DNA from: Actinomycetes bacterium
Lineage (GTDB): Bacteria; Actinomycetota; JAICYB01
Direction: 5' to 3'
NCBI GenBank assembly: GCA_025934435.1
Contig: JAICYB010000001.1
Coordinates: 131,293-195,292 of the forward strand
DNA length: 64,000 bases
Part shown: positions 7,358 through 49,007 of the stretch, piece by piece
How the letters are laid out: each line of letters opens with the position of its first letter
How positions within the stretch are numbered: the first letter of the stretch is position 1
The notes under the pieces: generated by a model
The model's database searches: none
Told to the model about the DNA's origin: nothing
What the model saw: the letters and a program-made list of their open reading frames with translations, nothing else
Program-made: the position numbers and the translations under genes

Positions 7358-7387
7358 GAAGGGCTTGCGTCCGCGCGACGCGCTCGC

Positions 7388-8107: not shown

Positions 8108-8116
8108 CTCGTCTCC

Positions 8117-8530: not shown

Positions 8531-8592
8531 CGCTACCTCCTTGCTGTGGAGTAACATACCGGGAGAAGGTATCCTACATACCGACGGTACGT

Positions 8593-9186: not shown

Positions 9187-9199
9187 AAGGAGCTACGGA

Positions 9200-9412
9200 A
9201 TGGCGAAGGGCAACGTGTACCGCGTAACCGAAGTCGTCGGTACGTCGGACGAATCGATCCAGCAAGCGGTGCGTACGGCGATCACTCGCGCGAACGAGAC
9301 GCTACGCAATCTCGATTGGTTCGAGGTCTCCGAGATCCGCGGCACGATCAAGGACGGCGACGTCGAGGAGTTCCAGGCGACGGTGAAGATCGGCTTCCGT
9401 CTGGACGGCTAG
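9200..9412 (+). CDS. Dodecin (flavin-binding) family protein
   Basis: 70 aa; YRVTEVVGTSDESIQQAVRTAITRA...LDWFEVSEIRG...F.ATVKIGFRL matches the dodecin pattern. Confidence 0.8.
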   Translation: MAKGNVYRVTEVVGTSDESIQQAVRTAITRANETLRNLDWFEVSEIRGTIKDGDVEEFQATVKIGFRLDG

Positions 9413-12195: not shown

Positions 12196-12314
12196 TGCTG
12201 CCTCCTTCCGTACTTCGCGGACTCACCAACAAGCAGCGGTACGTACGGGGACGCGCGGTGTTCCTTACATCTGCTCACTGATCGGCTGTCACTGGCTCCA
12301 GCTACCATACGAAC

Positions 12315-20194: not shown

Positions 20195-20901
20195 GCGAAG
20201 CGGCGTTTGTCCTCGGCCGCGTACGTCGCGACGTGTGCATCGGCCGCGACGGTCGCCCGCAGACGCTCGACGACCTCTTCGAGACGCGGCGCGGGGATCG
20301 CGCAGCTCATCTCGTCCGGCTTCATCCCCGTGCGCACGCGCGAGAGTGCGCAACCCACGCTCGCGGCGACCTCGCCTTGTTCGGCCGCGATCGGGACGAT
20401 GTGGCATTGCGGTTTGCCTTCGATGCGAAGTCCGGGCATCGCGTCGGACAGCGTCATCAGCTGCTTGCCGTCGACGCGGATGAAGACGACGTCGGGGTCG
20501 ATGGGCGTGTCCGCGAGCGGGCCGTAGGTGATGAAGTTCGACTTCTTCGACATCGTCGGGATCTTCGGAAAAACGTCCGGCGTCACCCAGCCCGCTTCGA
20601 CGAGCGCTGCGACGTCGGCGCGCGTCGCGGCTTCGGCGAGCTCGATCAATCCGTGGGTCAGGCTCCCGACGCTGCAGTTGCCGTGATCTTCGGGAACCGT
20701 CGTGAACGTGCGCTCCGCGCCGCGCATCCAGAACACGCAGCCCGCGGGGACGCGGCCGGTGCGCCCGTCCGCCGTCGGATCGGGCGCGGCCGCGTCGAAG
20801 CGTTCGACGCCCGGATCCTCGTCCGAGAACGTGATGCCGATCGGGGGTGCATCGAGGCGGAGCAGCTTCGTCAGATCTTCAGACAGTTGTTGCCAGGTCA
20901 C
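20191..20901 (-). CDS. DUF169 family protein
   Basis: GTG start overlapping the rSAM stop (GTGA); conserved PIGITFSDE...GCVFW...HGNCSVG pattern. Confidence 0.55.
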   Translation of the reverse strand: MTWQQLSEDLTKLLRLDAPPIGITFSDEDPGVERFDAAAPDPTADGRTGRVPAGCVFWMRGAERTFTTVPEDHGNCSVGSLTHGLIELAEAATRADVAALVEAGWVTPDVFPKIPTMSKKSNFITYGPLADTPIDPDVVFIRVDGKQLMTLSDAMPGLRIEGKPQCHIVPIAAEQGEVAASVGCALSRVRTGMKPDEMSCAIPAPRLEEVVERLRATVAADAHVATYAAEDKRRFA

Positions 20902-22232
20902 GTTGCCTCCGATCGAGCGAAGTCGAACTGTCCCTTCGTCGGCTCCGCGCAACAGAACCACGGTTCCGTCAGCCGCGGCCGATCTGTAACGACGACCTCA
21001 CTCGTTGGAACGGGACGGCCCGCCGCTTCGTATACGACGCTTCGAATGTCGCAGAAGACCGCTGCCGCGGACAAACCGCGCTCGGTCCCGTCCTCGACGA
21101 TCGCGGAGATCTTTCGTTGCAGCGCGTCGGTCGGCGACGTCCACCTGTACGAAAGTGTCTCGGGATCGTACGGACCGGCGTCCATCACGCCGAGCATGAG
21201 TGAACCTTCCGGAACGAGGAGACGGATCGAATACTGCACCGGATCGACGTTGCCGACGAGATCGTGCCGGGCGACGAAGTCGAGGATGTCGGCGACGTCG
21301 TCTGCCGTCGTCCACGGCGTGAAGGGGAGCCACGACGGACGGGTCTCGATCCCGTGGGATCGCAATAGTGCGACCACACGTGCTTCGTCCGCGGCGGTGT
21401 GTCCTTTGTCGAGCTTCTCGAGGATGAACTCGTTCACCGATTCGAATGCGCTTACGACGAACAGGCAACCTTGCTCCGCGAGGAGGGGGACGAGGCTCTC
21501 GTAGCGCAGGAGGTGCGAGACCTTCGCCGTCACGTCGAAGGTTACGTTCGGGAACCGCTGGTGCAGCATCTCGACGATCTTCATCGAGTGCGCCCAGCGG
21601 TTGAGGAAGTCGGGATCGCCGAACGTGATGTGCTCGGCTCCCGCTTCGATCTGCTGCGCGATGTCGTCCATCACGACGTCGACGGGGACGCGCCGCGTAC
21701 GACCGTCGTACACGACCGGCACCGGGCAGTGGCGGCAGCGGTGGACGCACCCGTGCGACGCCTCGACATATCCGGCGAGCCTGCGGGACGCACCGATCTC
21801 GAGCTGCGCGTAGCGCTCGAGCGAAGGAAGCGACTCACGGACGGGGAGATGGAAACGCTGGCGCGCGGTGGAGATCCGTCCGGAGGGAGCGACCCCGGCG
21901 AGCCATGCGAGCAGGGCCGGCTCGTACTCGCCGGCGAAGGCTTCGTCGGCGGGGCCCTTGACCGTCGCGTAGAGGCCGTAGAAGGCGATCGGCAAGCCGG
22001 GATGGTGCGCCTTGATCTCCTCCGCGCCCTTGATCGCGAGGCGCATCGCCGTGTGCATCGGGACGGAGAACGCGACGGCGTCTGCGCTCTCGATGAGGGC
22101 GGGAGCCCAGTCCTCGACGGAGATGTCGAGCGTCGTGACCTGGTGGCCCGCGGCGCGCAGAGCCGCGGCCGGCGATGCGATGTGCAGCGGCTGGTGGCCG
22201 AGCTCGTAGGTGGAGACGAGGAGAACGCGCAT
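20898..22232 (-). CDS. B12-binding domain radical SAM protein
   Basis: Start at MRVLLVSTYELGH (ATG 22232). N-terminal Rossmann/B12-like domain, then the CVHRCRHCPV CxxxCxxC radical SAM motif. Confidence 0.8.
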   Translation of the reverse strand: MRVLLVSTYELGHQPLHIASPAAALRAAGHQVTTLDISVEDWAPALIESADAVAFSVPMHTAMRLAIKGAEEIKAHHPGLPIAFYGLYATVKGPADEAFAGEYEPALLAWLAGVAPSGRISTARQRFHLPVRESLPSLERYAQLEIGASRRLAGYVEASHGCVHRCRHCPVPVVYDGRTRRVPVDVVMDDIAQQIEAGAEHITFGDPDFLNRWAHSMKIVEMLHQRFPNVTFDVTAKVSHLLRYESLVPLLAEQGCLFVVSAFESVNEFILEKLDKGHTAADEARVVALLRSHGIETRPSWLPFTPWTTADDVADILDFVARHDLVGNVDPVQYSIRLLVPEGSLMLGVMDAGPYDPETLSYRWTSPTDALQRKISAIVEDGTERGLSAAAVFCDIRSVVYEAAGRPVPTSEVVVTDRPRLTEPWFCCAEPTKGQFDFARSEAT

Positions 22233-22265
22233 GAAACCTAACCCTAACCCCCGGTTACCCTGGCG

Positions 22266-22916
22266 TTGATGCGTGTGTTCTTGCTCGACGATCACGAGGT
22301 CGTCCGTCGCGGTCTGGCGGAGATCCTTCGTGATGAGGACGGATTCGACGTCGTCGGTGAAGCCGCCACGAGCAGCGGGGCGCTGAAGCAGATCGCCGAG
22401 GCGCAGCCGGACGTCGCCGTCCTCGACGTCCGGCTCCCCGATGGAGATGGCGTCGAAGTGTGCCGGGAGATCCGGTCCGCCGTCCCCGACTGCCGCTGCC
22501 TCATCCTCACGGCCTTCGCGGACGACACCGCGCTCTTCGCGGCGATCGTCGCGGGGGCGTCCGGGTTCCTGCTGAAGACGGCACCGGCCGACGAGATGAT
22601 CGATGCCATCCGGACCGTCGGTTCCGGCGGATCCCTCCTCGACCCGGCCGTCGTGGAGCGCGTGTTCGAGCGCGTCCGCGAGCGGACGGAGAAGAAGGAG
22701 GATCCGCTCGCCGGTCTCACGCCGCAGGAGCACCGGATCTTCGATCTCATCGCGGGCGGTCTGACCAACCGGGAGATCGCCGAGCAGATGTTCCTCGCCG
22801 AGAAGACGGTGAAGAATTACGTGTCGAACCTCCTCGCGAAGCTCGGGATGTCCCGGCGCGTTCAGGCCGCGCTTTTGGCCTACGAGCTCCGTGACCAGCG
22901 CGAAAAGCCTGACTAG
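22266..22916 (+). CDS. LuxR/NarL-family response regulator (REC plus HTH_LuxR), orphan
   Basis: RVFLLDDHEVVRRGL...DVAVLDVRLPDGDG receiver; C-terminal LTPQEHRIFDLIAGGLTNREIAEQMFLAEKTVKNY. Confidence 0.85.
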   Translation: MMRVFLLDDHEVVRRGLAEILRDEDGFDVVGEAATSSGALKQIAEAQPDVAVLDVRLPDGDGVEVCREIRSAVPDCRCLILTAFADDTALFAAIVAGASGFLLKTAPADEMIDAIRTVGSGGSLLDPAVVERVFERVRERTEKKEDPLAGLTPQEHRIFDLIAGGLTNREIAEQMFLAEKTVKNYVSNLLAKLGMSRRVQAALLAYELRDQREKPD

Positions 22917-23490
22917 TCCTTTCTGAGCGTTCCGCTCATGTGACCGGGTCCCTGGTCGGCGCGTGACCTTCGGCCCTACGGACCGACCCCTCTGTCGCCC
23001 GATGCTGCCTGTGGCCCGCACGTCGGGGCCAACGGTGTCAGCGGAAGGCCCAAGCGATGACCGGCCCGATCAACACAGAGCGAGCGTTCTGGGACCTCGC
23101 TTGGGCGATCGAACGAGTTGATGATTCGACGGGGAGCCGGACGGGAAGATCCAGCCGTCCCGCGCTGTCGAGCTGTGGATCGGATGCCCCTAGCACCCCA
23201 CGATCCACGCCACCGGAGGCGCCTGTGCTTCGCTTCGGCGGAGCGGAGGCAACCGCAGTGCGGGGCGACATCCCCCTCCGCACGGGTCCTCTCACGACGG
23301 CTCCCCGTCATCTCTACCTGATCAGCAACGTCTCCTCCGCAAGCGCCCGGACGAACCCACGGGAATCGTCGTGCGGGCCGGCAGTGACGGAGCCCTCGAG
23401 GCTCGTCGGGCGCTGCGGGGAGACCTCTCCCGTTCTCGAGATCAATCGCTTCCTCGGAGGGACGCGCACGACCGATGGAGGTGAACAGAA

Positions 23491-26400
23491 GTGAGAAGCC
23501 CGGCAGCAACGATGATGCGAAACAAAGCGGCGGCGATCCTTACTGCCGTTCTTCTTGTCCTTGGTGGGCTCGGCGGCGTAGCGATCGCCGTGACCGTAGG
23601 GGGCGGCACGCTCGGCAACTTCGAGAACGACGGCAACTTCGCCGTCGACCATGGTGGTCAGCTCGACTGGGCCAACGTGTCGTCCTCGAAGACCGTCGAC
23701 GACACAGCGGACAGCGGATTCACGCAAGGGTCGAAGGAACTCGACCCGAGCCAGTGGGTCTGCGGCACCGGCGGAGCGAACCCGGACAAGGGGAACATCC
23801 TCCGCGCCTACGTCGACGGGCGGATCAGCGCGAGCAGCGCGTTCATCGATCTTGCGTGGGTACGCCAGGGCGTGTCGGGAACCGGCGACGTCCACCTCAA
23901 CTTCGAGTTCAGCCAGAAGGGGACGGCACAGGACCCGGCGAGCTTCACGCCCGGCCCATGCGGGATCAGCCGGACCCAAGGCGACCTTCTGATCACCTAC
24001 GACTTCCCGGGCGGCAGCTCCGACCCGGACATCAAGGCGTTCAAGTGGGACGCGACCCCCGGCGGCGCCGACGAAGGCCAGTGGATCGACCAGAACTTGC
24101 CCGCGTCGGCCGCGAAGGCCGCCGTGAACCAGGTGACCGTCCACGACACCATCCAGAACGTCGACGTCGACCCCGGTCGCTTCGGCGAGGCGACGATCGA
24201 TCTGCTCGCCGCCATCCCGCCGGACGCGAACGGTCACTGCACGACGTTCGGCTACCTGAACGTTCGCTCGCGGTCGTCCGGTGAGTCGATCACCTCGGCA
24301 CTCCAGGACAAGCTTCCGACGACGGCGATCGATCTCTCCACCTGCGGCAAGATCGTCGTCCACAAGACGGACGACCATGTTCCGTCGCAACCGCTCGCCG
24401 GGGCCGTCTTCGGTCTCTTCAAGAACTCTCCGAACGGCGCGCCGATCGCGCAGGCGACGAGCCAGGCCGATGGTTCGGCCACGTTCGACACGGTCGACCC
24501 GGGCACGTACTACGTGAAGGAGCTCAGCGCTCCGTCCACCGACTACACGCTCGACTCGACGGTCGTCGGGCCGTTGACCCTGAACTTCCGCCAGACGCTC
24601 GACGTCACATCTCACGTCTTCGTCAACCCGCGCAAGGTCGGGTCGCTGCACATCATCAAGCTCGTCAACGACGGCAACGGCAACCCGATCACCCCGCTGA
24701 ACCTCGCGGGTCTCGACGGGACCTCCTTCGTGGTCTTCAAGGACGCGAACAACAACGGCACGTTCGACGCCGGTGAAGACGCGAAACTCTGGCCGGCACA
24801 GACGACGGACGCCACGTGCACCATCAGTGGCGGTCTCGGCTACTGCAACGTCGGCCCGCTGCCGACCGGCACGTACGGCGTGCACGAGATCACGGCGCCC
24901 GCGGGCACGCAGATGGGCCCGGACATCTTCCCGGTCGCGATCCTCGCCGCCGGTGCGACGGTCGATGTGCCGTTCACGAACACCGTTCGTGTCAACGCGC
25001 GTCTGTCGCTGACACCGAACAAGGCGGCCAACCAGGTCGGCAACAAGCACACCTTCACCGCGCACCTCGAGCTCGACCACGGCGACGGACACGGATTCGT
25101 GAACGCGCCGGCCGGCGAGACGATCAACGTCACCAAGGTTTCCGGTCCGGGAGCGCTCTCGGCTTCGAGCTGCGCGACCGACGCGAGCGGACAGTGCACG
25201 GTCGACCTCAACTCCTCGGTCACGGGTCTTACGACCGTTCGCGCGAGCTGGAACGGCCTCGTTTCGACGAATGTCGGCCCCGCGCCGGCGTCGACGACTT
25301 CGAACGATGCGGTGAAGCGGTGGACGGACGCGAAGCTCGTTCTGACGCCGCCGTCCGCAGCGAACCAGGTCGGGAACACGCACACGTTCTTCGGCGCGCT
25401 CTCCTTCGACTACGGCGACGGGCACGGGTTCGTCGCGGCGCCGGCCGGCGAAACGATCGGTTTCGTGAAGTCGTCCGGTCCCGGGACGCTTTCTTCGAGC
25501 GGCTGCTCGACGAATGCGACGGGCATGTGCTCCGTCAACCTCGACTCGTCCGTGACGGGTCTCACGACGGTGCACGCGAGTTGGAACGGGCACATCGCGA
25601 CCGCCGAAGGTGATGCGTCCGCATCGACGACGTCGAACGACGCCGTCAAGCGCTGGACGAACGCGCACCTCACGCTGTCGCCGAACGGCGCGGCGAACCA
25701 GATCAACAACAAGCACACCTTCACGACGCACCTGACCTTTGACTACGGCGACGGGAACGGTTTCGTCGACGCGCCGGCGGGTCAGACGATCAACGTCTCG
25801 AAGGTCTCAGGTCCGGGCGCGCTCTCGGCATCGAGTTGCACGACGGATGCCGGCGGACAGTGCACCGTCGATCTGACCTCATCGACGACGGGACTGACGG
25901 ACGTCAAGGCGACCTGGAGCGGCTCCATCGCGACCGCCGAAGGCAACGCGGCGGGGTCGACGAGCTCCAACGACGCGCTGAAGCGCTGGGTCGACGCGCA
26001 CCTCGCGCTGACTCCGCCGACGGCCGTGAACCGCATCGGTGACGTCCACACGTTCACCGCGACACTGACCTTCGACTACGGCGACGGGCAAGGTTTCGTC
26101 GCGGCACCGGCCGGCGAGACGATCGATATCTCGAAGACGTCCGGGCCGGGAGCGCTGTCGGCTCCGAGCTGCACGACGAACGCGAGCGGACAGTGCACGG
26201 TCGACCTCAACTCGTCCGTGACGGGAACGACCGATGTCCAGGCGAACTGGGCGGGCGACATCGCAACCGCGCAGGGCAACGCTGTGGCGACGGCGCAGGG
26301 ATCGGCCGAGAAGATCTGGGTCGACGCGCTGATCCAGATCTCACCGCCGCAAGCGGCGGACCAGGTTGGTGACAACCACGTGCTGACGATCGACGTCAGC

Positions 26401-29061
26401 GCGGTGACCGGCGGCGTCGCGTCGCCGGTGTCGGGCATCGATGTGCACGCGGCGATCACGAATGGTCCCGGTGGGTTCGTCGGTCCGGATGACTGCACGA
26501 CGAACGCGTCCGGCGAGTGCACGGTGACGATCAAGTCGACGACGACGGGCATCACGACGGTGCAGGCGTCGGCGGACGTGAACGTGAACGGCAAGATCGT
26601 TCACCTCGTCACCGACGGCCAGGGCAGCGACCCGGCCCCCGCGCAGAAGGTGTGGGTCAACGCGCACCTCACCCTCGATCCGCCTGCGGCCGCGAACCAG
26701 GTCGGAGTCACACACACATTCACCGCCCACCTGACGTACGACTACGGCGACGGTAAGGGCTTCGTCGACGCGCCGTCGGGCGAGACGATCGACCTCACGA
26801 AGGTCTCGGGTCCGGGCGCGCTCGCCGCGCCGAGTTGCACCACGAACTCGAACGGCGAATGCACCGTCGACCTGACGTCGGCTACGACGGGACTGACGAC
26901 GGTCGACGCGAGCTGGAACGGCCACATCGCGACGGCGTCGGGTTCCGCGAGCGCGAACGCGTCCTCGAACGACGCGCTCAAGCGCTGGACGGACGCGCAC
27001 CTGACGCTTTCACCGCCTGCGGCGGCGAACCAGGTAGGCAACAAGCACACGTTCACGGCTCACCTGACCTTCGACTACGGCGACGGGAAGAACTTCGTCG
27101 ACGCGCCGTCCGGTGAGACGGTTGATCTGACGAAGGCTTCCGGGCCGGGAACGCTCTCCGCGTCGAGCTGCACCACGAACTCGAGCGGCGAGTGCACGGT
27201 CGATCTGAACTCGGGCGTCACGGGTCTTGCGACCGTGGACGCGAGCTGGAACGGACAGATCGCGACGGCGCAGGGCGCGGCGAGCGCATCGGTGTCGTCG
27301 AACGACGCCGTGAAGCGCTGGATCGACGTCAAGCTCGACCTCACACCGCCGAGTGCGGTCAACCGGATCGGTGACGTCCACGTCTTCACCGCGCACCTGA
27401 GCTTCGACAGGGGTGACGCGAACGGGTTCGTGGACGCGCCGGCGGGCGAGACGGTCGACTTCTCGAAGCTCTCCGGACCGGGAACGCTCTCGGCACCGAG
27501 CTGCACCACGAACGCGAGCGGCGAGTGCACGGTCAACCTCAACTCGACGCAGACCGGTACGACGGATGTGGAAGCGTCCTGGGGCGGGCACGTGACGACG
27601 GCGCAGGGCGACGCGGTTGCGAGCACGCACGCCGACGCGGAGAAGATCTGGGTCGACGCGCTGATGATCATCAATCCGCCGCAGGCGGAAAACGAGGTCG
27701 GACACAACCACGTCTTCACGATCAACGTGAACCAGGTCGTGAACGGCGTGACGTCGGCCGCCGGCAACGTGGACGTCACAGCGTCCATCGTGAGCGGACC
27801 GGGTTCCTTCGTCGGGCCGAACACGTGCACGACGAACCCGGCCGGTGAGTGCACCGTCACGATCGTGTCGAACGACACGGGTGTCACGACGGTCGAGGCT
27901 GCGGCGACGGTGTCGGTCAACGGCAAGGCGATCAACCTGATCACGGACGGACAGGGCACGAACGCTCCGGCGGCAGTGAAGCGCTGGGTCAACGCGCGCC
28001 TCGGCGTGACGCCGCCCGACGCTACGAACATCGTGGGCCACGTCCACGTGTTCACCGCGCACCTCGAGCTCGACTTCGGCGACGGCAAGGGCTTCGTCAA
28101 CGCCCCCGCCGGCGAGACGATCTCGTGGGCCAAGACGTCGGGCGTCGGCGCGCTCTCGTCGAGCACGTGCACGACGGACGCCAACGGCACCTGCACGGAC
28201 GACCTGAACTCGACGGTCTCCGGTCAGACCGAAGTCGCCGCGACGTGGAACGGCACGATGGCGACGGCGCAGGGTTCGGCGTCGCTCGCACGGGCGGCCG
28301 AAGCACACAAGAACTGGGTCGCACACCCCGCGATCAACATCGTGAAGGGTGGCGCGGTGCTCGCGCACGAAGGCGACATCGTGACCTACTCCTTCAAGGT
28401 GACGAACACGGGCGACGTTCCGCTGGTGAACGTGGCCGTCACAGACGACATCATGGGTTCGATCGGAACCATCGGTAACCTCGCCGTCGGTCAGAGCAAG
28501 ACCGTGACGAAGGACTTCACGGTGCCGGCGAACTCGACGACGATCACGAACATCGGCAAGGCCTGCGGTGTCGACTCCGACAGCACGCAGGTGTGCGACA
28601 CGGACAACCACACCCTGTTCGTGATCCACCCGACGATCCAGATCGTGAAGACGGCGAATCCGACGACGGCGGACCCGGGTCAGACGGTGACCTACACCTA
28701 CGTCGTGACGAACCTCGGCGACACGACCCTGAACAACGTGGTCGTGACCGACGACATCATCGGGAACGTCGGCACGATCGCATCGCTCAAGCCGAACGAG
28801 TCTCAGACGCTGAAGAAGACGTTCACGGTCGCGGCGAACTCACCGCGGACGAACATCGGAAAGGCGTGCGGGACGGACGTCCTGAGCAAGACGGTCTGCG
28901 ACACGGACCCGGCGACGATCAGCATCGTCCTGCCGATCCCGCCGCAGCACCGGCTCCCGAAGACGGGACTCGAGCTCCTGCTCTGGACAGCGTTCGGCAT
29001 GGTTCTGACGGCAGCAGGTCTGGCGATGATGAAGACGCGCCGCTACTTCCTTCCCGAATAG
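23491..29061 (+). CDS. Giant LPXTG-anchored surface protein: signal peptide, unknown N-domain, 2 Cna-B/SpaA-like domains, 10 Ig-like tandem repeats, 2 DUF11 domains, LPKTG sorting signal
   Basis: 1856 aa. C-terminal LPKTG plus hydrophobic stretch plus KTRRYF. DUF11: IQIVKTANPTTADPGQTVTYTYVVTNLGDTTLNNVVVTDD. Cna-B-like: GAVFGLFKNSPNGAP...GSATFDTVDPGTYYVKE. Confidence 0.85.
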   Translation: MRSPAATMMRNKAAAILTAVLLVLGGLGGVAIAVTVGGGTLGNFENDGNFAVDHGGQLDWANVSSSKTVDDTADSGFTQGSKELDPSQWVCGTGGANPDKGNILRAYVDGRISASSAFIDLAWVRQGVSGTGDVHLNFEFSQKGTAQDPASFTPGPCGISRTQGDLLITYDFPGGSSDPDIKAFKWDATPGGADEGQWIDQNLPASAAKAAVNQVTVHDTIQNVDVDPGRFGEATIDLLAAIPPDANGHCTTFGYLNVRSRSSGESITSALQDKLPTTAIDLSTCGKIVVHKTDDHVPSQPLAGAVFGLFKNSPNGAPIAQATSQADGSATFDTVDPGTYYVKELSAPSTDYTLDSTVVGPLTLNFRQTLDVTSHVFVNPRKVGSLHIIKLVNDGNGNPITPLNLAGLDGTSFVVFKDANNNGTFDAGEDAKLWPAQTTDATCTISGGLGYCNVGPLPTGTYGVHEITAPAGTQMGPDIFPVAILAAGATVDVPFTNTVRVNARLSLTPNKAANQVGNKHTFTAHLELDHGDGHGFVNAPAGETINVTKVSGPGALSASSCATDASGQCTVDLNSSVTGLTTVRASWNGLVSTNVGPAPASTTSNDAVKRWTDAKLVLTPPSAANQVGNTHTFFGALSFDYGDGHGFVAAPAGETIGFVKSSGPGTLSSSGCSTNATGMCSVNLDSSVTGLTTVHASWNGHIATAEGDASASTTSNDAVKRWTNAHLTLSPNGAANQINNKHTFTTHLTFDYGDGNGFVDAPAGQTINVSKVSGPGALSASSCTTDAGGQCTVDLTSSTTGLTDVKATWSGSIATAEGNAAGSTSSNDALKRWVDAHLALTPPTAVNRIGDVHTFTATLTFDYGDGQGFVAAPAGETIDISKTSGPGALSAPSCTTNASGQCTVDLNSSVTGTTDVQANWAGDIATAQGNAVATAQGSAEKIWVDALIQISPPQAADQVGDNHVLTIDVSAVTGGVASPVSGIDVHAAITNGPGGFVGPDDCTTNASGECTVTIKSTTTGITTVQASADVNVNGKIVHLVTDGQGSDPAPAQKVWVNAHLTLDPPAAANQVGVTHTFTAHLTYDYGDGKGFVDAPSGETIDLTKVSGPGALAAPSCTTNSNGECTVDLTSATTGLTTVDASWNGHIATASGSASANASSNDALKRWTDAHLTLSPPAAANQVGNKHTFTAHLTFDYGDGKNFVDAPSGETVDLTKASGPGTLSASSCTTNSSGECTVDLNSGVTGLATVDASWNGQIATAQGAASASVSSNDAVKRWIDVKLDLTPPSAVNRIGDVHVFTAHLSFDRGDANGFVDAPAGETVDFSKLSGPGTLSAPSCTTNASGECTVNLNSTQTGTTDVEASWGGHVTTAQGDAVASTHADAEKIWVDALMIINPPQAENEVGHNHVFTINVNQVVNGVTSAAGNVDVTASIVSGPGSFVGPNTCTTNPAGECTVTIVSNDTGVTTVEAAATVSVNGKAINLITDGQGTNAPAAVKRWVNARLGVTPPDATNIVGHVHVFTAHLELDFGDGKGFVNAPAGETISWAKTSGVGALSSSTCTTDANGTCTDDLNSTVSGQTEVAATWNGTMATAQGSASLARAAEAHKNWVAHPAINIVKGGAVLAHEGDIVTYSFKVTNTGDVPLVNVAVTDDIMGSIGTIGNLAVGQSKTVTKDFTVPANSTTITNIGKACGVDSDSTQVCDTDNHTLFVIHPTIQIVKTANPTTADPGQTVTYTYVVTNLGDTTLNNVVVTDDIIGNVGTIASLKPNESQTLKKTFTVAANSPRTNIGKACGTDVLSKTVCDTDPATISIVLPIPPQHRLPKTGLELLLWTAFGMVLTAAGLAMMKTRRYFLPE
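24987..28320 (+). repeat. Ten diverged in-frame tandem coding repeats (~345 bp / ~115 aa) inside the giant surface-protein gene
   Basis: Unit consensus W.DA.L.L.PP.AANQVGN.HTFTAHL.FDYGDG.GFVDAP.GETI...K.SGPG.LSA.SCTT.A.G.CTVDL.S..TGLT.V.ASWNG.IATA.G; variant units at repeats 5 and 9. About 80% nt identity between units. Confidence 0.7.
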
Positions 29062-29082: not shown

Positions 29083-29110
29083 GGGCCCGCCGGCTTAGGC
29101 CGGCGGGCCC
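29083..29110. terminator. Bidirectional terminator hairpin (gggcccgccgg-cttagg-ccggcgggccc) between convergent genes
   Basis: 11-bp perfect stem; the right arm overlaps the last SURF1 codons. Confidence 0.5.
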
Positions 29111-29819: not shown

Positions 29820-30947
29820 TCAGCGAGCGATGCGAACGACGTCGACCGGTTCGTCGAAGCCTTTCAGGATCTCGGGGCCGCAGTCGTCGACGTCCACACC
29901 GGCGATCTTCGGGCCGATCTCAGCCGGCGCCAGCACGCCGCCCGGCGGTGCGAGCTTCACGAGTCGAGCGGCAAGGTTCACGACCGGTCCGAAGTAGTCG
30001 CCTTCCCGTGTGACGACCTTGCCGTCGGCGATGCCGATGCGTACCGGTGGTACGTCCTTCCTGTTGCGGAAGGTCTCGGCGAGCGAGAGCGCGATCTCGA
30101 CGCCGCCGGCGGCATCGGTGGCGACGAACATCACTTCGTCCCCGATCAGCTTCACGACGTGACCACCCTTCTCCGTGATGAGATCCGACGCGTCGGTTTC
30201 AAACGTCCGGAGGACGGCCGCCAGTTCCTCGGTCGAGAGTTGCTGCGAGAGCGCGGTGTAGCCGACGAGATCACAGAAGCCGATCGCCCGGTCGATGGTG
30301 TCGACACCGCCCCAGTCCTGTCCGAGGAGGAGCGCGTCCGTCCGCGTGCGTTGCTCGATGTTGCGGCGCAGGAGGACGTCCATCGTCTGGACGGCTGCGG
30401 GGAGCAGGTCCATCGCCGTCTCGTTCGCCGCAACGATGTCGTCGTCCGTGAAGCCCTCGTGTTTGCTCTGCTCGCCGATCGCGTAGACGAACGCGGAGAT
30501 GAAAGCGTCCGCGCAGCGGGCCATCGAGTTGCCGATGACCCGCACGACCTGCAGGGCGTCGTCCTCGCCGAAGAAGTCGCTCGCCGCTTGGAAGAGCCGG
30601 AGTGCTTGGATGTCGTCGTCCGTGAAGACGGGTTCGTCCGGCGCGGGGTTCGCGAAGCCGCACGCGAGGTTGAGGCGTCCGAACCTTTCGAAGGAGAGGC
30701 CGGCGCGCTCGGCCGCTTCGGCGAGGGTGTAGCGATGCGCTTCGCGCTTGGCGCTTTCCCGCATCGCTTCCAGCACGCCCTGTGTCGTCCCGAGGAGCCC
30801 GGCGATGGTGTCGAGGTCGAGCGCCGCGGCGAGGTTGCGGGCGCGCTCGACGCGCGTGGATGACGGCTGCGAGAGCCCTTCGATGATCTTCGCGAGCTTC
30901 TTCGCTCGCTTCGGGGGTTCGTCGGTCACTTCCATATCATCCTTCAC
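29820..30947 (-). CDS. Class III adenylate/guanylate cyclase with N-terminal HTH-containing regulatory domain
   Basis: IGFCDLVGYTALS...KLIGDEVMFV...GPVVNLAARL cyclase catalytic motifs. Confidence 0.8.
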   Translation of the reverse strand: MKDDMEVTDEPPKRAKKLAKIIEGLSQPSSTRVERARNLAAALDLDTIAGLLGTTQGVLEAMRESAKREAHRYTLAEAAERAGLSFERFGRLNLACGFANPAPDEPVFTDDDIQALRLFQAASDFFGEDDALQVVRVIGNSMARCADAFISAFVYAIGEQSKHEGFTDDDIVAANETAMDLLPAAVQTMDVLLRRNIEQRTRTDALLLGQDWGGVDTIDRAIGFCDLVGYTALSQQLSTEELAAVLRTFETDASDLITEKGGHVVKLIGDEVMFVATDAAGGVEIALSLAETFRNRKDVPPVRIGIADGKVVTREGDYFGPVVNLAARLVKLAPPGGVLAPAEIGPKIAGVDVDDCGPEILKGFDEPVDVVRIAR

Positions 30948-30948
30948 G

Positions 30949-31737
30949 ATGCCGGACCCGCTCGACTCGGCCCTCGACCGCCTCTACGGCGTGCCGCTCG
31001 ATGAGTTCACCGCGACGCGGAACACGCTCGCGAAGGAACTCACGGGCGACGACGCACGGCAGGTGAAAGCACTGAAGAAGCCGAACATCGCGGCGTGGGC
31101 CCTGAACCAGCTCGCGCGCCGCGATGACCTCTCCGTGCTCTTCGACGCCACGGACAAGCTCCGTCGCGCGCAGCGCCGGGTGCTTTCCGGCGGGAAGGCG
31201 AGCGAGCTCCGCGCCGCGACGGACGAGCGCAATCGCGTCGTCTCCGGGCTCACGAAGCGCGCCGCGGACGTGCTCGAGGAGGCGGGCCATGCGGCGGCGG
31301 CGTCGACCCTCTCGGCGATCAGCGACACGTTCGTCGCCGTCGCATCCGACGACGTGGGGGCCGAGCTCCTCCGGAAGGGTCGCCTGACCCGCGAGCTCCA
31401 TCCGCAGTCCGTCGTCGACGTCGGAGGCTTGACGCTCGTCGAATCACCCGACGAGGACGAAGCCCTCCCCGATCTCGGCGCCCTCGAGGCCGCCCGCGCC
31501 GCCGTGGACGAGGCGCGCGCGAGAGTGAAGGACGCGCAGGCCGCCGTCAGCGAGGCGAACCGCGAGGCCGAGCACCTGTCGCACGAAGCCGACCGAGCCG
31601 AGCGAGCCGCGACGGCCGCACGGGAGTCGGCCGAGTTCGCGCGGCGCGCGGCGGACGCGCGGAAGGGCGAGCTCGATGACGCGGAGCGATCGCTCGCGGA
31701 AGCGCGCGAGGCGCTACGGGACGCTCAGCGTTCGTAG
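30949..31737 (+). CDS. Hypothetical protein with Ala/Arg/Glu-rich C-terminal coiled coil
   Basis: Start at MPDPLDSALDRLYGVPLDEF, divergent from the cyclase. Confidence 0.5.
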   Translation: MPDPLDSALDRLYGVPLDEFTATRNTLAKELTGDDARQVKALKKPNIAAWALNQLARRDDLSVLFDATDKLRRAQRRVLSGGKASELRAATDERNRVVSGLTKRAADVLEEAGHAAAASTLSAISDTFVAVASDDVGAELLRKGRLTRELHPQSVVDVGGLTLVESPDEDEALPDLGALEAARAAVDEARARVKDAQAAVSEANREAEHLSHEADRAERAATAARESAEFARRAADARKGELDDAERSLAEAREALRDAQRS

Positions 31738-34407: not shown

Positions 34408-36789
34408 CTATCCCGTGCAGACCCCGAAGCACCCACGCGGGCGCGAACCGATCGTGAACCGCCGTCTCGCGGCCGTCGGATCGACGTTGCCGGAAGCGTC
34501 CTTCGCCTTGACGCGGAAGAGGTGGCTTCCGGGTCGCAGGTGCCGGTACGTCTTCGGGCTCGCGCACGGCCGGAACCGGTGGCGGTCGAGACTGCAGAGG
34601 AACGTCGCGTTCGGCGTCGACGAGCGGAACCAGAAGCGCGCGGTGTGCCCTCTGATCGACATGTGCCGTATCGCGGTGTTCGGCGCTCCGCCGGCCGCGG
34701 ACGTGATCTTCGTGACGAAGCCGTCGAAGCTGCCACCGGGGCTCGTCTGGAACGCGCCCGCGGTGACCGGGAAGTCGATCGAGTTCGTCCGACCGGTCAC
34801 GAACGTCCCGCCGGCATCATCGACCGCGAGCCCGAAGCCCTGTTCGAAGCCGGGCCCGCCGAGGTAGGTCGAAGAGTCGAGCGAGTCTCCGCCGACGGAC
34901 AGCGTCGTGACGAAGGCGTCGACCGTTCCGCCGTACGTCGGCTGCACCGCGCCCGGAGTCACCGGGAAGTCGGCGGAGTCCGTCTCTCCTGTGACGGATG
35001 CCGATCCGGCGGCGTCGACGGCGATCGCCTGTCCGTTCTCGGTATTGGCTCCGCCGAGATACGTCGAATAATCAAGCGACATCCCGTTGTCGGAAAGCTT
35101 CGTCACGAAGGCGTCGTTGATCCCGTGGATCGACGTTGCGAACGCGCCCGGCGTCACCGGGAAGTCTGAAGACTCGGATGTGCCCGCCACGTAGGCGTGA
35201 CCGGTGCTGTCGACCGCGACCGCGAAGGCCGTGTCGTAGGAGGATCCACCGAGGTAGGTGGAGTAGTCGAAAGATGTCCCGGACGGCGAGACCTTGGTCG
35301 CGAAGGCATCCACGAACCCACCGAACGCCGGCTGGAACGCGTTCGTCACCGGGAAGTCCGTGGACTGGGTCCGGCCCGATACATAGGCCGAGCCCGTCGC
35401 GTCGACGGCCACCCCGCCGACCTCCTCGATGTCCGATCCCCCGAGGTACGTCGAGTACACAAGTGATGTGCCGTCCGTGGAGATCTTCGACACGAACGCA
35501 TCGCTCGAGCCACCGACCGTCGTCTGCGCCGAGCCTGCGGTCACCGGGAGATTCGCGGAGTCGGTGAGACCGGCGACGTAGGCGCTTCCTGCCTGATCGA
35601 CGGCGATCCCAGCGCCTGAGTCACCTCCCGACCCTCCGAGGTACGTCGAGTAGAGCAGCGATGTTCCGTCCGCCGAGAGCTTGGTGACGAAGGCATCGTC
35701 GAAGCCGCCCAAGCTTCCGCTGAAAGCTCCGAGCGTCACCGGGAAATCGGTCGAGGACGTGTCACCGGTGATGTAAGCCGACCCGTTTCCGTCGACGGCG
35801 ATGCCCGTCCCTTGATCGCTATCCGACCCGCCGATGTACGTGGAGTACACGAGCGATGTTCCGTCCGGCGAGAGTTTCGTCACGTAGGCATCCGGGGAGA
35901 CGGCAAGCGTTGTTTGGAAGGCGCCCGGCGTCACCGGGAAATCGGCGGAGTCGGTCGATCCGGTGACGTAAGCGGACCCGCTGCTGTCGACGGCGATCGC
36001 CGAACCTTGATCGACGTCCGCCCCGCCGAGATATGTCGAGTAGTCCATCACTTGGGGGTCGATCACGAGTTGCTTCGAGGAGTCGTGGCGGCCGGCACGG
36101 AAGGAGAACCTCGAGCCGTGGAGCCGGATCGACGCCGGGACGTTCTTCCGCTTCCGATCGACGACTTGATAGGCGTGGGGCGACGTATGCGTCAAAGTTC
36201 CGGCAGGGGTTGCGATCTGCAGCCCACCGCGACGCAGTGCGAGGGACGTTGCACCGACGACGTCGAACGCCGCGTTCAGGGCGGCGTGCGGAGCGGCCAC
36301 GACGTCGTATTCGAGCGCGCCGCTTCGTCCCTCGTAGAACACGACGTCGACACCGGGCCAGAGGTCGTGGTAACGAACGCGCGAGAAGCCGCGTACGCCG
36401 CGCACCCACTTCGACGTGTCGCGTCCGGAGATGTAGTTCGACGTACCGGACTGTTGGCCGCTTCCGGTGATGAGGGGCGTGCGGTTCGCGCCGACGGGAC
36501 GCAAGCGGACGACCGCGGCTCGCTTCGCGTGGTTGCCGGTCAGGGACAGAACTATCTCGGTGGGTGTGAAGAAGATCGTCGCACCGGGTTCACGCGCGAG
36601 GTAACGCACGTGCGCGTCCGACTGTCCGCGATTCTCTTCGAAACGGAGGGGGAGGTGCGTCGTGGGCTTCGATGCGGGTCGCGCGACCTTCGGTGTAGCT
36701 CCCACGCTCGGCGGGACGAGGCACGCGGCCAGCGACAAGATGACGACGATCGCGCACAGATACGGCGCGCGGAAGAACAGCTTTCGCAT
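34408..36789 (-). CDS. Secreted SBBP (beta-propeller) repeat protein
   Basis: Start MRKLFFRAPYLCAIVVILSLAAC (ATG 36789). About 10 repeats of YSTYLGG...G.AVD..G.AYV.G.T.S.DFPVT.GAF. Confidence 0.75.
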   Translation of the reverse strand: MRKLFFRAPYLCAIVVILSLAACLVPPSVGATPKVARPASKPTTHLPLRFEENRGQSDAHVRYLAREPGATIFFTPTEIVLSLTGNHAKRAAVVRLRPVGANRTPLITGSGQQSGTSNYISGRDTSKWVRGVRGFSRVRYHDLWPGVDVVFYEGRSGALEYDVVAAPHAALNAAFDVVGATSLALRRGGLQIATPAGTLTHTSPHAYQVVDRKRKNVPASIRLHGSRFSFRAGRHDSSKQLVIDPQVMDYSTYLGGADVDQGSAIAVDSSGSAYVTGSTDSADFPVTPGAFQTTLAVSPDAYVTKLSPDGTSLVYSTYIGGSDSDQGTGIAVDGNGSAYITGDTSSTDFPVTLGAFSGSLGGFDDAFVTKLSADGTSLLYSTYLGGSGGDSGAGIAVDQAGSAYVAGLTDSANLPVTAGSAQTTVGGSSDAFVSKISTDGTSLVYSTYLGGSDIEEVGGVAVDATGSAYVSGRTQSTDFPVTNAFQPAFGGFVDAFATKVSPSGTSFDYSTYLGGSSYDTAFAVAVDSTGHAYVAGTSESSDFPVTPGAFATSIHGINDAFVTKLSDNGMSLDYSTYLGGANTENGQAIAVDAAGSASVTGETDSADFPVTPGAVQPTYGGTVDAFVTTLSVGGDSLDSSTYLGGPGFEQGFGLAVDDAGGTFVTGRTNSIDFPVTAGAFQTSPGGSFDGFVTKITSAAGGAPNTAIRHMSIRGHTARFWFRSSTPNATFLCSLDRHRFRPCASPKTYRHLRPGSHLFRVKAKDASGNVDPTAARRRFTIGSRPRGCFGVCTG

Positions 36790-36884
36790 CGCAAGATCCC
36801 CCATCCATCTCGGCGCGGTTTCACCACGGTCACGCTGCCGCGGAAAACGGTACAACAGAACCGCGCCGGCGTCATGGGTCGGAT

Positions 36885-36895
36885 GCGATATATCG
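36885..36895. promoter_or_regulatory. Perfect palindrome GCGATATATCG (third copy of the motif found upstream of the DUF4097-PadR operon)
   Basis: Seen directly, in the divergent region between the SBBP gene and the small gene at 36939. Confidence 0.3.
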
Positions 36896-36938
36896 GCCGG
36901 TGAAGTAGTTGCGGGCGTTTTGGGGCATCCTCGTTCCG

Positions 36939-37252
36939 TGGCCGAGATCCCGAAGACGCCCGTCGGACGCCATCTGGGCTGGGTGCTCGATGTGCTGCGA
37001 AGTGCTCCGTCCGCCGAAGAAGTGGGCAAGCACTTCTCGCGGACGCTCCTTTCGCAAACGCCCCCGGAAACGCTGGTGCAGATCTTGGAGCTGCGCGCGG
37101 GCGAGCTGCGGGGGTTCGTCCTCGGCCGATTCGAGCACGAAGCGCAGCGAGAGCTGATCGCCATCCTCGAGCGTCCGGACGGATCGGCCTACCGGTTGCA
37201 CGTGGGCGTCGACGATCAGCGGATCACGCAGTTCTCGCTGACGCCCGTGTAG
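36939..37252 (+). CDS. Hypothetical small protein
   Basis: GTG start assumed: VAEIPKTPVGRHLGWVLDVLRS...ILERPDGSAYRLHVGVDDQRITQFSLTPV. Start uncertain. Confidence 0.3.
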
Positions 37253-37273
37253 GTCCCTGATAGCGTTTCGGCG

Positions 37274-38425
37274 ATGCGGGGACAGGACTTGCGTCGTCAC
37301 GCCGCCGACGCGCGGATCCAGCTCACGGCGATCGGGCTCGTCATCGTTCTGACCTTCTTCGCCGTGGCCTTCCGTGGCGGCCCGAAGCCGATCGCGGTCG
37401 GCAAGATCGACAGCACGCCGTCGCCGACCGTCGTGCCGATCGTGCCGGAAGGCCGTCCGGTCCCGCCGGCCTTGAACCCGAACCCCCTGCTCGGCGCGAG
37501 CGGCTCGGGTCCCGGCGGAGCGCTCGCGTTCCGCGGGGCGGTGAACGTGCCGAAGGATCTGCAGTTCTTCCTCGTGGTCGGAAGCGACGCGCGTCCCGGT
37601 GAGGCCTACGACCACACGCGGGGTGATTCGTTACACATCGTCGCGATCGATCCGCGCATCCGGAAAGGGACGGTGCTCGGCATCCCGCGCGACAGCTACG
37701 TCCCCATCCCGGGACACGGCACGCAGAAGATCAATTCGGCGCTGGCGTACGGCGGCCCGCGATTGCTCGCGCAGACGATCCACAACCTGACGGGCTTCCC
37801 GATCTCGTATTACGCGGTGACGGGGTTCGACGGATTCGTGAAGATCACGAACGCCCTCGGCGGCGCCGACATCTACGTGCCGTACGACATGGACGATCGC
37901 GCGTACTCCGGCGCCGACTTCAAGAAGGGCTGGCACCACATGGACGGCAACCAGGTGCTTGCATTCAGCCGCGATCGTCACAGCCTTGCCAATGGAGACT
38001 TCGGCCGCTCGTTCAACCAGGGGAGCGTGATCCTCGACGCACTGACGAAACTGCGTGCGCAGACTTCGGACGAGAGCGGCATCCGCAAGTGGTTGCATAT
38101 TTTGTTCGCGTATGCGCGTCTCGATCTGAACTTCGAAGACGCCGTTCGTCTCGGCATCTTCGCCCGGCAGCTCGCTCCCGCCAACCTCATCAACGTCGTG
38201 ACGCCGGGTACATCTCGCAACGTCGGCGGACAGAGCGTCGTCGTGCTCGGCGACGACGCGTACCGGTTGTTCCGCGACATCGGCGCCGACGCGCTCGCCG
38301 ACGGCAAGGAGCACCGCGAAGCGCCGCCGCCGACGCCCAAGCCCGCCGCTCCGACGCCGACGCCCCGGCCGACACCGCCGGCGATCCTCCCGTCGCCGAC
38401 GCCGCACGGCATCCTTCCTCTCTAG
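37274..38425 (+). CDS. LCP (LytR-CpsA-Psr) family cell-envelope phosphotransferase
   Basis: N-terminal TM; FFLVVGSDARPGE...DSLHIVAID...GIPRDSYVPIPGHGTQKINSA LCP core; Pro-rich tail. Confidence 0.8.
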   Translation: MRGQDLRRHAADARIQLTAIGLVIVLTFFAVAFRGGPKPIAVGKIDSTPSPTVVPIVPEGRPVPPALNPNPLLGASGSGPGGALAFRGAVNVPKDLQFFLVVGSDARPGEAYDHTRGDSLHIVAIDPRIRKGTVLGIPRDSYVPIPGHGTQKINSALAYGGPRLLAQTIHNLTGFPISYYAVTGFDGFVKITNALGGADIYVPYDMDDRAYSGADFKKGWHHMDGNQVLAFSRDRHSLANGDFGRSFNQGSVILDALTKLRAQTSDESGIRKWLHILFAYARLDLNFEDAVRLGIFARQLAPANLINVVTPGTSRNVGGQSVVVLGDDAYRLFRDIGADALADGKEHREAPPPTPKPAAPTPTPRPTPPAILPSPTPHGILPL

Positions 38426-43000: not shown

Positions 43001-43065
43001 GGTCTTGACCTCCGGAATATCCAGTAGTAACTTGCAAGTTACAAGTTACCAGCGTAGGAGACGAT

Positions 43066-48833: not shown

Positions 48834-49007
48834 CGTTCTTGAACCTGAAGAGCCGGAGTCATGGCGACCCCGGCTCTTGTGCGGTCATTCCTAGTTCTCA
48901 CAGGAAGGTTGTTTGCTTGCGCGGTGGATTACCCAGTTCGAAGGCGTCGTGAAACTTGTTTGATTTCGTGTCGCGTGAGGTACGACCGAAGTAAGGAGGT
49001 GACGCAC

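Follow-up and report, generated by a model that had tools for sequence, protein, structure and literature searches.

The gene at 23491-29061 of the window (the whole 64-kb stretch of DNA analysed here) probably encodes a monomeric, sortase-anchored fibrillar adhesin; sequence and models suggest a stalk stabilised by disulfide and isopeptide bonds and a probable glycan-binding head. By its sequence features the protein belongs to the known fibrillar-adhesin kind; its head family, and a folding core conserved in the gap upstream of the gene, are without prior annotation. Taken by itself the gene is one more fibrillar adhesin, and its chief value is a corrected annotation. The head represents a large family that has a confident fold model but no Pfam or NCBIfam model; it could be set up as a new domain family, and its cultivable hosts would lend themselves to tests of glycan binding. 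The core, well delimited and strand-specific, is a candidate RNA regulator of surface proteins from a little-studied lineage of actinobacteria. An earlier description made from the DNA letters (the sequence-only reading) had taken the product for an LPXTG surface protein whose stalk consists of Ig-like repeats and whose N-terminal domain could not be assigned, and Pfam, NCBIfam and the sorting signal uphold that outline.

Domains of the surface protein

The reading frame is unbroken across 5.6 kb, and its GC3 of 0.89 is in line with that of the other real genes of the window. Its GTG start is supported by a conserved GGAGG and by the ATG that the ortholog at metagenome locus L006 has at the same aligned position; the ORF is real and the protein as robust as had been claimed. 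The features of the gene are:

23477..23481, + strand: Shine-Dalgarno GGAGG, 9 nt 5′ of the GTG, conserved in L006
23491..29061, + strand: surface-protein gene of probable fibrillar-adhesin type, 1856-aa ORF with GTG start, from translation
23491..23592, + strand: putative signal peptide with basic N-terminal region, hydrophobic core AAAILTAVLLVLGGLGGVAIA and probable A-x-A cleavage site, read by eye from the translation
23596..24339, + strand: head domain, aa 36-283, of a family without annotation, modelled as an all-beta sandwich
24346..24981, + strand: two SpaA (CnaB-type, prealbumin-like) domains, aa 286-381 and 384-497, two stretches of Pfam SpaA
24982..28344, + strand: stalk of ten Big_1 Ig-like units, 111 aa each, in the order A A A A' B A A A' B A''
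26347..26679, + strand: B-type unit 5, lacking the D-Y-G-D-G loop and with a 4-residue insertion, DVNV
27676..28011, + strand: B-type unit 9, from identity matrix and unit alignment
28324..28926, + strand: two DUF7507/CLIPPER_2 (CnaA-like) wall-adjacent domains, two stretches of Pfam DUF7507
28954..29058, + strand: cell-wall sorting signal, with LPKTG at aa 1822-1826, a 22-residue hydrophobic stretch and the tail KTRRYFLPE

The N-terminal domain is indeed unassigned: aa ~36-283 matched nothing in Pfam, NCBIfam or the PDB sequences. Pfam gave no hit at E ≤ 0.1 for the window protein or at E ≤ 0.01 for ten relatives, no PDB sequence matched better than E = 0.23, and comparison with known adhesive-domain families also gave no match. 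The model of the head is a confident beta-sandwich that is remotely similar in structure to CBM9/DOMON domains. Foldseek, which had been suggested for this domain, returned CBM9/DOMON-like matches at TM scores of only 0.35-0.40, and the likeness does not extend to CBM9/DOMON sequence profiles. Identity to these domains (the CBM9 of T. maritima Xyn10A, 1i82; Sas6, 7uwu; DOMON/cytochrome domains) is 5-13%, and the head differs from them in its length of ~250 aa, its extra elements and its four Cys. As modelled, the head is a putative ligand-binding, probably glycan-binding, tip: it is a distinct domain at the end distal to the anchor, and its modelled fold resembles carbohydrate-binding modules. 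Its family comprises 1,789 cluster representatives in Actinomycetota, including cultured Agromyces and Gaiella. Among relatives the head is always N-terminal and always followed by stalk domains, and the closer ones end in LPxTG or LAxTG, a membrane helix and an Arg-rich tail. The database names of head-family proteins derive from their SpaA stalk domain only.

Two SpaA/CnaB-type domains at aa 286-497, detected with Pfam, had been overlooked in the sequence-only reading. SpaA (PF17802) scored 71 bits against a cut-off of 23.1, and the PDB sequence matches of the pair are Gram-positive adhesins and pilins (7k1u, RrgA 2ww8, BcpA 3kpt). The Lys of VVHK and the Glu of VKE align with those of RrgA 2ww8, the Asn (VFVNP, FTNT) were placed by eye, and the second domain bears a DANNNGTFDAGED loop. 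From these residues we infer that the Lys/Glu/Asn triads are positioned for intramolecular isopeptide bonds.

The C-terminal pair had been called DUF11. There are two domains and they do fall in the DUF11 superfamily, but the family name needs changing: DUF7507 (PF24346) scores better, at 69.6 bits against a cut-off of 27, and Pfam DUF11 (PF01345) reaches 23.6 bits, just under its cut-off of 24.6. NCBIfam TIGR01451 passes on the same pair (48.4 bits, cut-off 24). Lys (I.IVK), Asp (VTDD) and Asn (TNIGKA) residues and a pair of Cys occur in both domains. In a weak alignment with 9IFR, the crystal structure of CLIPPER, the Lys coincides with its isopeptide Lys and the Asp with its catalytic Asp. 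The LPKTG-TM-KTRRYF sorting signal was correctly recognized; it is a sortase-substrate motif and the sole sorting signal in the window.

No sortase was found within the 64-kb window, where no real frame has a TLxTC motif and a scan of ~50 ORFs gave no Sortase match. The absence had been pointed out before and stands, yet it is not remarkable, since housekeeping sortases are usually encoded away from their substrate genes. Among the long frames just one contains a TLxTC-like motif, TLVTC at 43055 on the minus strand; the motif lies ~10 residues into a frame that codes for an alpha/beta hydrolase, not a sortase. Gene contexts vary among the relatives; at locus L004 a PF04203 sortase is 1.7 kb from an LPRTG homolog.

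The repeat stalk and its ortholog

Big_1 (PF02369) matched the stalk in nine stretches, with 150.9 bits against a cut-off of 34.9. The units start at aa 509, 620, 731, 842, 953, 1064, 1175, 1286, 1396 and 1508. Unit alignment confirms the order A4-B-A3-B-A of the sequence-only reading, with ten Ig-like units each holding a Cys pair; the motif is C-x7-C in 10/10 units, on neighbouring strands. Alignment and identity matrix also agree with its division into eight A units, with the loop (F/L)D.GD..(G/N)FV.AP.G(E/Q)T(I/V) (8/10 units), and two B units at positions 5 and 9. In the AF2 model of unit 6 (pLDDT 87) the two Cys are on strands 64-66 and 72-78, and among solved structures the model comes closest to intimin D00-D0 and D0-D1 (E about 1e-5). 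A homolog search with one repeat unit as query gave nothing usable.

The dimensions of the repeats required correction. In place of the ~115 aa or 345 bp given before, the period is 111 aa or 333 bp by identity matrix and TRF (repeat period 333), and nucleotide identity between units, put at ~80%, measures 55-78% overall (A-A 64-78%). At the amino acid level A units are 50-77% identical to each other and 33-43% identical to B units; unit 5 is 56% identical to unit 9, against 33-43% to the A units. The A' units 4 and 8, each of which precedes a B unit, are 71% identical, pointing to duplication of an A'-B pair as the origin of the A/B pattern.

The ortholog P0005 at L006 is 1851 aa long, 82% identical and fully syntenic, and its full-length alignment to the window protein, 1855 columns with 7 gaps, shows the same ten units in the same order. 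On this alignment the A/B pattern predates the split between the two genes. That the number and order of repeats reflect assembly error (collapse, expansion or chimera) is very improbable. Tandem 333-bp repeats classically trouble assemblers, and the array of the relative at L001 is broken by frameshifts; against this, the longest exact word common to two units is 34 nt, words of ≥20 nt are shared by only 7 pairs, and the frame here is intact. Retention of all ten units in an independent metagenome contig also argues against assembly collapse. On the grounds of the short shared words and this ortholog, the recombination and assembly risk that had been attached to the repeats is not borne out.

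Proposed function and comparison with known surface proteins

From its sequence, the protein would be exported by Sec through its putative N-terminal signal peptide. The helix and basic tail at the C-terminus would keep it in the membrane, and a sortase encoded elsewhere would cut LPKTG between T and G and link the protein to peptidoglycan. Fourteen beta-sandwich domains (2 SpaA/CnaB, 10 Big_1, 2 CLIPPER_2) would then hold the head ~50 nm from the wall, a length estimated from the ~4 nm usual for an Ig-like domain. The stalk would be hardened by a single disulfide between strands in every Big_1 unit and by isopeptide bonds within its CnaB/CnaA-type domains, four in number; the residues for these cross-links are present and correctly placed in sequence and model, and the bonds are predicted from them. 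The head (a 250-aa CBM9/DOMON-like beta-sandwich) would bind the target, and from the model a polysaccharide or other glycan, carried by a particle, a plant or a neighbouring cell, may tentatively be suggested as its ligand.

Two other functions were weighed. The head might serve no adhesive purpose and instead bind heme or another cofactor in the manner of DOMON domains, or capture nutrients, making the protein a wall-tethered redox or scavenging device; we regard this as unlikely. That the protein is instead a subunit of a pilus, assembled by a class C sortase of the pilus-specific kind, is scarcely credible. The SpaA/CnaB domains with their E-box-like YYVKELSAP, and a weak match to the SpaH/EbpB major-pilin model, would be in keeping with a pilin, but NF033902 gives 31.3 bits where its cut-off is 95, the YPK pilin motif is absent, the 64 kb holds no sortase or other pilin gene, and 1856 aa with a ten-unit stalk are the dimensions of a monomeric fibrillar adhesin.

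Gram-positive fibrillar adhesins include S. aureus Cna and SdrD and streptococcal adhesins with Rib, SHIRT or CnaB stalks. With LPXTG proteins of this class the present one shares a putative signal peptide, the N-terminal non-repeat head, the tandem beta-sandwich stalk, the isopeptide-type CnaB/CnaA domains, and the C-terminal LPXTG, helix and basic tail. An N-terminal adhesive domain, a repeat stalk and a C-terminal LPxTG characterize the class in Actinobacteria (PMC8286594), and of the predicted fibrillar adhesins whose stalk domains are known, >90% have no known adhesive domain (PMC9210967). A tandem stalk in the sense of Monzon et al. (2021) is present, as 10 Big_1 + 2 SpaA + 2 DUF7507. 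Unlike the described fibrillar adhesins, the protein has a head that belongs to no described adhesive-domain family and a disulfide-type Cys pair in each Big_1 unit. Its stalk is mainly Big_1, whereas the published survey had Big_1 with Intimin_C only in Proteobacteria (PMC8286594), and its host is an uncultured environmental actinobacterium rather than a host-associated Firmicute.

The Big_1 unit is shared with the intimin/invasin inverse autotransporters that are its source (23-25% identity to the solved matches intimin D00-D0 and D0-D1). In contrast to those proteins, this one has no beta-barrel, LysM or C-type lectin tip; Pfam IAT_beta gave no match in it, and with the NCBIfam models for intimin it reaches 31-33 bits, where the cut-offs are 1400-2050. 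Its polarity is opposite, the anchor being C-terminal and the head N-terminal, and the Cys pair and D-x-G-D-G loop are additions relative to intimin Big_1. DUF7507 is the CLIPPER_2 family of fibrillar-adhesin stalk domains (bioRxiv 10.1101/2025.04.25.650565). The two wall-proximal DUF7507 domains share with CLIPPER/CLIPPER_2 the 9IFR-type Lys/Asp positions and a Cys pair near the end, but there are just these two copies and they do not form the main stalk; in the close relatives P0006, P0009 and the L005 homolog the stalk is mostly CLIPPER/CLIPPER_2. Periscope proteins are length-variable surface rods with very high DNA identity between repeats and copy-number changes from strain to strain (PMC9704523). 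A tandem Ig-like rod between head and LPXTG anchor is common to both, but the 55-78% identity and 34-nt longest word found here are below the periscope range, and the repeat array of the only available ortholog consists of these ten units too.

The upstream gap and gene neighborhood

The following features flank the gene:

22269..22916, + strand: NarL/LuxR-type response regulator, the upstream neighbour (Pfam Response_reg 91.6 bits, GerE 63.2 bits)
23128..23309, + strand: conserved folding core of the 574-bp gap, 182 nt, candidate structured RNA
29083..29110, no strand assigned: perfect 12-bp GC hairpin GGGCCCGCCGGC-TTAG-GCCGGCGGGCCC, between the convergent adhesin and SURF1 genes

The sequence-only reading had set the untranslated region at 470 bp. 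A long gap is there, but it measures 574 bp (22917-23490): a minus-strand ORF reaching 23021 is a spurious extension over the real response-regulator gene on the + strand, which ends at 22916. The regulator has a receiver domain and a GerE helix-turn-helix and is 89% identical in amino acids to its syntenic L006 ortholog. No histidine kinase gene adjoins it. It may regulate the adhesin locus.

Within the gap, the core has a 12-bp closing stem (GACGGGGAGCCG/CGGCUCCCCGUC) around several helices. It is 97% conserved with L006, against 79% for the ortholog overall, with 5 substitutions in 152 aligned positions and a 30-nt indel that amounts to one whole extra hairpin; its exact runs of 44 and 50 nt are two of the three longest in 11.5 kb. 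The + strand folds at -106.8 kcal/mol with a z-score of -5.19 (0/200 shuffles), against -1.98 for the - strand, and the L006 core, of the same architecture, gives -4.87 (+) against -2.31 (-). This z-score ranks fifth among 200 local windows, unusual but not unique. No compensatory base changes were seen between the two sequences available. The covariance-model scan that had been proposed for the gap produced no Rfam match: a permissive search of 22800-23600 gave nothing better than E = 3.7, and no match at the gathering threshold occurred in the whole window; ARAGORN likewise gave nothing. A simple promoter scan of 22700-23700 found no sigma-70-like site. The core is not a dispersed repeat, because no second copy occurs in the window or in loci L001-L016. 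The earlier suggestion of regulatory RNA in the gap is plausible in view of the conserved, strand-specific folding core, but unproven.

The core is a candidate leader of the adhesin gene, or else a candidate 3′ end or terminator of the regulator transcript. We give somewhat less than an even chance to a + strand transcript of the core being a structured RNA with an effect on expression of the adhesin or the response regulator. Close to even is the chance that it acts as DNA (a promoter or operator of the regulator) or is the 3′ UTR or terminator of the regulator, and is not an adhesin leader RNA. The core lies 211 nt 3′ of the regulator stop on the same strand, and the L006 core ends in GACGGCUCCCCGUC followed by U7, which would equally fit a regulator terminator; the U run is absent in the window itself. 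Low folding z-scores upstream of other family members were considered as a common feature and set aside, the stable structures in the two cases examined being terminators of preceding genes, which along with the lack of covariation favours this second reading. Speaking for a structured RNA are the strand-specific fold, in which four or five pairs are G-U (z -5.2 against -2.0; in L006 -4.9 against -2.3), the size and form of a 182-nt multi-helix structure that is no simple hairpin, the sole indel being a complete hairpin, and the fit of 5/5 substitutions to the pairing.

Also rejected was a 145-codon ORF at 23057-23494 as a real gene coupled translationally to the adhesin, which we consider very unlikely. 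In both orthologs the frame stays open from a conserved ATG (for 145 and 133 codons), its TGA overlaps the adhesin GTG (GTGA; ATGA in the ortholog), and changes at the third position are mildly in excess over its first 23 codons (5/4/10). However, GC by codon position is flat at 0.62/0.66/0.72 (adhesin 0.58/0.53/0.89), the remainder has no third-position bias (1/3/3 and 21/18/13), the frame in which the conserved nucleotide block 23366-23425 is read differs between the two orthologs, Pfam gives no match, and at 66% G+C long open frames are common by chance.

Returning to the candidate structured RNA, a stronger proposal is improbable: that the core is a new cis-acting structured RNA (a riboswitch-like or protein-bound leader, or an attenuator) controlling the sortase-anchored adhesin and, separately, that the head founds an undescribed family of glycan-binding adhesive domains. 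If true, the new RNA may tie in with the orphan NarL-type regulator and the adenylate cyclase.

An adenylate cyclase gene also neighbours the adhesin locus. At the other end of the gene, the hairpin at 29083-29110 looks like a bidirectional terminator, and nowhere in the 20-30 kb scan are folding z-scores lower than in the windows around it. Look-ups by exact sequence retrieved no record for the adhesin or the regulator of the window. The nearest genome matches are Acidimicrobiaceae and MAGs named "uncultured Actinomycetes".

The adhesin gene and its stalk

The adhesin gene occupies 23491-29061 (plus strand) as an uninterrupted 1856-codon ORF that begins with GTG, and its third-position G+C (0.89) matches that of other real genes of the window. 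The start is sound, since the GGAGG 9 nt 5′ of the GTG is conserved in the closest ortholog, where ATG stands at the aligned start codon. Two features mark the end of the gene:

Adhesin C-terminus: sorting signal (LPKTG, a 22-residue hydrophobic stretch, KTRRYFLPE)
29083-29110: perfect 12-bp GC-rich hairpin that follows the adhesin stop codon and lies between the adhesin gene and SURF1, which converge

The cell-wall sorting signal is the sole one found by motif search of the window, and the hairpin is terminator-like in either direction. The gene is real and correctly delimited, and its predicted product is a sortase-anchored fibrillar adhesin, a well-known class (PMC8286594, PMC9210967). Identification as a Periscope-type variable protein, a pilin or an intimin was rejected. 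Overall interest is low to moderate; the modestly interesting leads are the head family, which is undescribed, and the fold conserved upstream of the gene.

The sequence-only reading had noted the lack of a sortase in the window, and we likewise found none among about 50 ORFs scanned, nor a TLxTC motif at a plausible position in the window. For a substrate of the housekeeping sortase, the lack of a sortase gene nearby is expected.

Motif searches and all-against-all comparison give ten tandem units, starting at aa 509, 620, 731, 842, 953, 1064, 1175, 1286, 1396 and 1508. The unit is Big_1 (Pfam 150.9 bits, cut-off 34.9). An AlphaFold model of unit 6, made with the ten units as alignment, is a beta-sandwich (pLDDT 87); among solved structures it best matches, at 23-25% identity, intimin D00-D0 and D0-D1. 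All ten units carry a C-x7-C pair; in the model the two Cys face each other on neighboring antiparallel strands (64-66 and 72-78), a placement that would fit the requirement for a cross-strand disulfide. The D-x-G-D-x-G-F-V-x-A-P loop is found in 8/10 units, its D-Y-G-D-G motif forming a hairpin loop between strands of the model. Unit alignment bears out the proposed order A4-B-A3-B-A: units 5 and 9 alone lack the loop; in them this region is 3 residues shorter, and 4 residues are inserted further on.

Other repeat figures needed revision. The period, put at about 115 aa (345 bp), measures 111 aa (333 bp), and in place of about 80% identity we find 55-78% nucleotide identity between units (64-78% among A units). 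The longest exact word that two units have in common measures 34 nt, and words of at least 20 nt are shared by just seven pairs. With so little exact repeat sequence, and an ortholog of the same architecture, the suspected assembly collapse or expansion is unlikely. That ortholog, the metagenome protein P0005 (1851 aa), is 82% identical to the adhesin (7 gaps over 1855 columns) and has the same Pfam pattern. Its gene is on a JGI contig of 20.5 kb whose gene order is that of the window: CAP, DUF169, radical SAM, response regulator, gap, adhesin, SURF1, adenylate cyclase, SHMT. This match and synteny make the ten-unit architecture older than the split of the two lineages, which are about 79% identical in DNA.

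Units 4 and 8 (A′) are 71% identical to one another and 57-63% to other A units, and share a PP.AVNRIGDVH start and an AEKIWVDAL linker. The B units directly following them are also alike (56% identity, compared with 33-43% to A units). These similarities point to duplication of an A′-B pair inside an older A array.

The domain make-up proposed earlier stood in part: it omitted two SpaA (CnaB-type) domains recognized by Pfam at aa 286-497, between head and array. These match CnaB domains of Gram-positive adhesins and pilins, with two residues of the isopeptide triad, Lys and Glu, in alignment. The second has a DANNNGTFDAGED loop at aa 418-430 (about 24742-24780), which resembles the Ca-binding loops of SdrD B repeats; the Pfam FG-GAP_3 match there is sub-threshold (E = 0.026). 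The two C-terminal domains called DUF11 pass TIGR01451 but fall just short for Pfam DUF11, while passing the DUF7507 (CLIPPER_2) threshold; in a weak alignment they have Lys and Asp at the isopeptide-Lys and catalytic-Asp positions of the CLIPPER crystal structure 9IFR.

The head domain and its relatives

The N-terminal domain (aa ~36-283), left unassigned by the sequence-only reading, indeed has no match in Pfam, NCBIfam or PDB sequences. Word-indexed search with it gave four relatives only; exhaustive profile search gave 1,789 cluster representatives, of which 1,058 have E≤1e-10. The domain is almost always N-terminal and followed by SpaA, SpaA_4, DUF11/DUF7507 or Big_1 domains. The C-terminus of closer relatives consists of LPxTG or LAxTG, a helix and an Arg-rich tail. 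Distant ones, with lengths of 420-560 aa and including proteins of Gaiella and of cultured Agromyces, bear only the database name 'prealbumin-like fold domain-containing protein', and end in ...TYTC.[IV].[IV]DP without LPXTG. Relatives of this size, P0187, P0225, P0085, P0100, P0128, P0140 and P0150, all have ...TYTC[TV][IV].[IV]DP at the extreme C-terminus as a conserved motif.

The head model, built from 94 sequences, is all-beta and confident (pLDDT 86, pTM 0.88), and Foldseek weakly recovers a CBM9/DOMON-like set; the head is therefore a remote CBM9/DOMON-like sandwich. Family-wide conservation covers two Trp and a number of acidic and basic residues but no Met or His, which would favor a sugar-type ligand over heme.

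The neighborhoods of the relatives are unrelated, with glycosyltransferases, a CsoR-type repressor and an HTTM protein among them. One MAG locus (L004) has a PF04203 sortase with a TLITC motif 1.7 kb upstream of an LPRTG homolog, which is adjoined by the sortase gene and a 437-aa Ice_binding-like protein (7342-9380). Upstream of two other relatives is a common pair of strong terminator-like hairpins (L003 5040-5330, L010 1700-1960). The hairpins come after a gene ending in a membrane helix and HR(A/S)KG tail, so that this gene may encode another anchored protein. An ENA metagenome relative (L001 4955-10121), directly 3′ of an HTTM/VKGC-lumenal-domain gene, is called as five genes, cut within the Big_1 array by frameshifts that are either assembly errors or marks of a pseudogene.

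The upstream gap and its conserved core

The 707-codon ORF at 20898-23021 (minus strand) was rejected as a single gene; it is an artefact or chimera, with a B12-binding/radical-SAM match at aa 267-582 only, and its upstream part overlies a genuine gene:

22269-22916, plus strand: orphan NarL/LuxR response regulator, upstream neighbor of the adhesin gene

The ortholog contig keeps radical SAM, DUF169 and the response regulator in synteny. Because the ORF end at 23021 is spurious and the real neighbor ends at 22916, the intergenic gap is 574 bp, not 470 bp.

The proposal that this gap could hold regulatory RNA finds no match in Rfam but gains a candidate. The gap as a whole is 73.5% conserved relative to the ortholog (flanking genes 78-84%), yet its core at 23128-23309 has just 5 substitutions in 152 aligned positions and contains exact runs of 44 and 50 nt, both among the three longest in 11.5 kb. 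By our estimate, 574 nt at 79% identity should contain about 0.02 runs of at least 44 nt. The plus strand of the core folds at -106.8 kcal/mol (z -5.19, 0/200 shuffles; minus strand z -1.98), and the ortholog core has the same architecture (z -4.87, minus strand -2.31). Three substitutions are unpaired and two retain pairing via G-U, while the single indel, of 30 nt, is one self-contained hairpin; no compensatory double changes were found between the two sequences. In a local scan the core ranked fifth of 200 segments by folding z-score. No second copy was found in the window or in loci L001-L016.

A 145-codon ORF across the gap, open in both orthologs, was rejected as coding because its codon-position G+C is flat, without third-position bias, and the two orthologs read a conserved block within it in different frames. 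The core is a reasonable candidate for a plus-strand structured RNA. On the two sequences compared, it could be a leader of the adhesin gene, a terminator of the regulator transcript, for which the U7 at the end of the core in the ortholog locus (L006) speaks, or a DNA-level control region.

Other genes of the window

Further genes and ORFs are:

29820-30947, minus strand: class III adenylate cyclase with Ad_Cy_reg domain, two genes downstream of the adhesin gene, synteny conserved
within 34408-38425, minus strand: 926-aa SBBP beta-propeller/DUF7948 protein
36605-37252, plus strand: small ORF_12_N-domain gene, between the SBBP protein and LCP genes
37253-38425, plus strand: LytR_cpsA_psr (LCP) cell-wall-ligase-family gene
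47157-48884, 45668-46759, 46468-47247 and 54305-55174 (minus strand) and 30748-31737 (plus strand): long ORFs
12282-13310, plus strand: DUF222/HNH endonuclease gene

The adenylate cyclase and the orphan regulator hint that the locus is under signalling control. The stretch from SBBP/DUF7948 to LCP (34408-38425) encodes more functions of the cell envelope, at a distance of 5-9 kb from the adhesin gene. The long ORFs have coding-like composition and no Pfam match. DUF222/HNH endonuclease genes are often tied to mobile DNA in actinobacteria.
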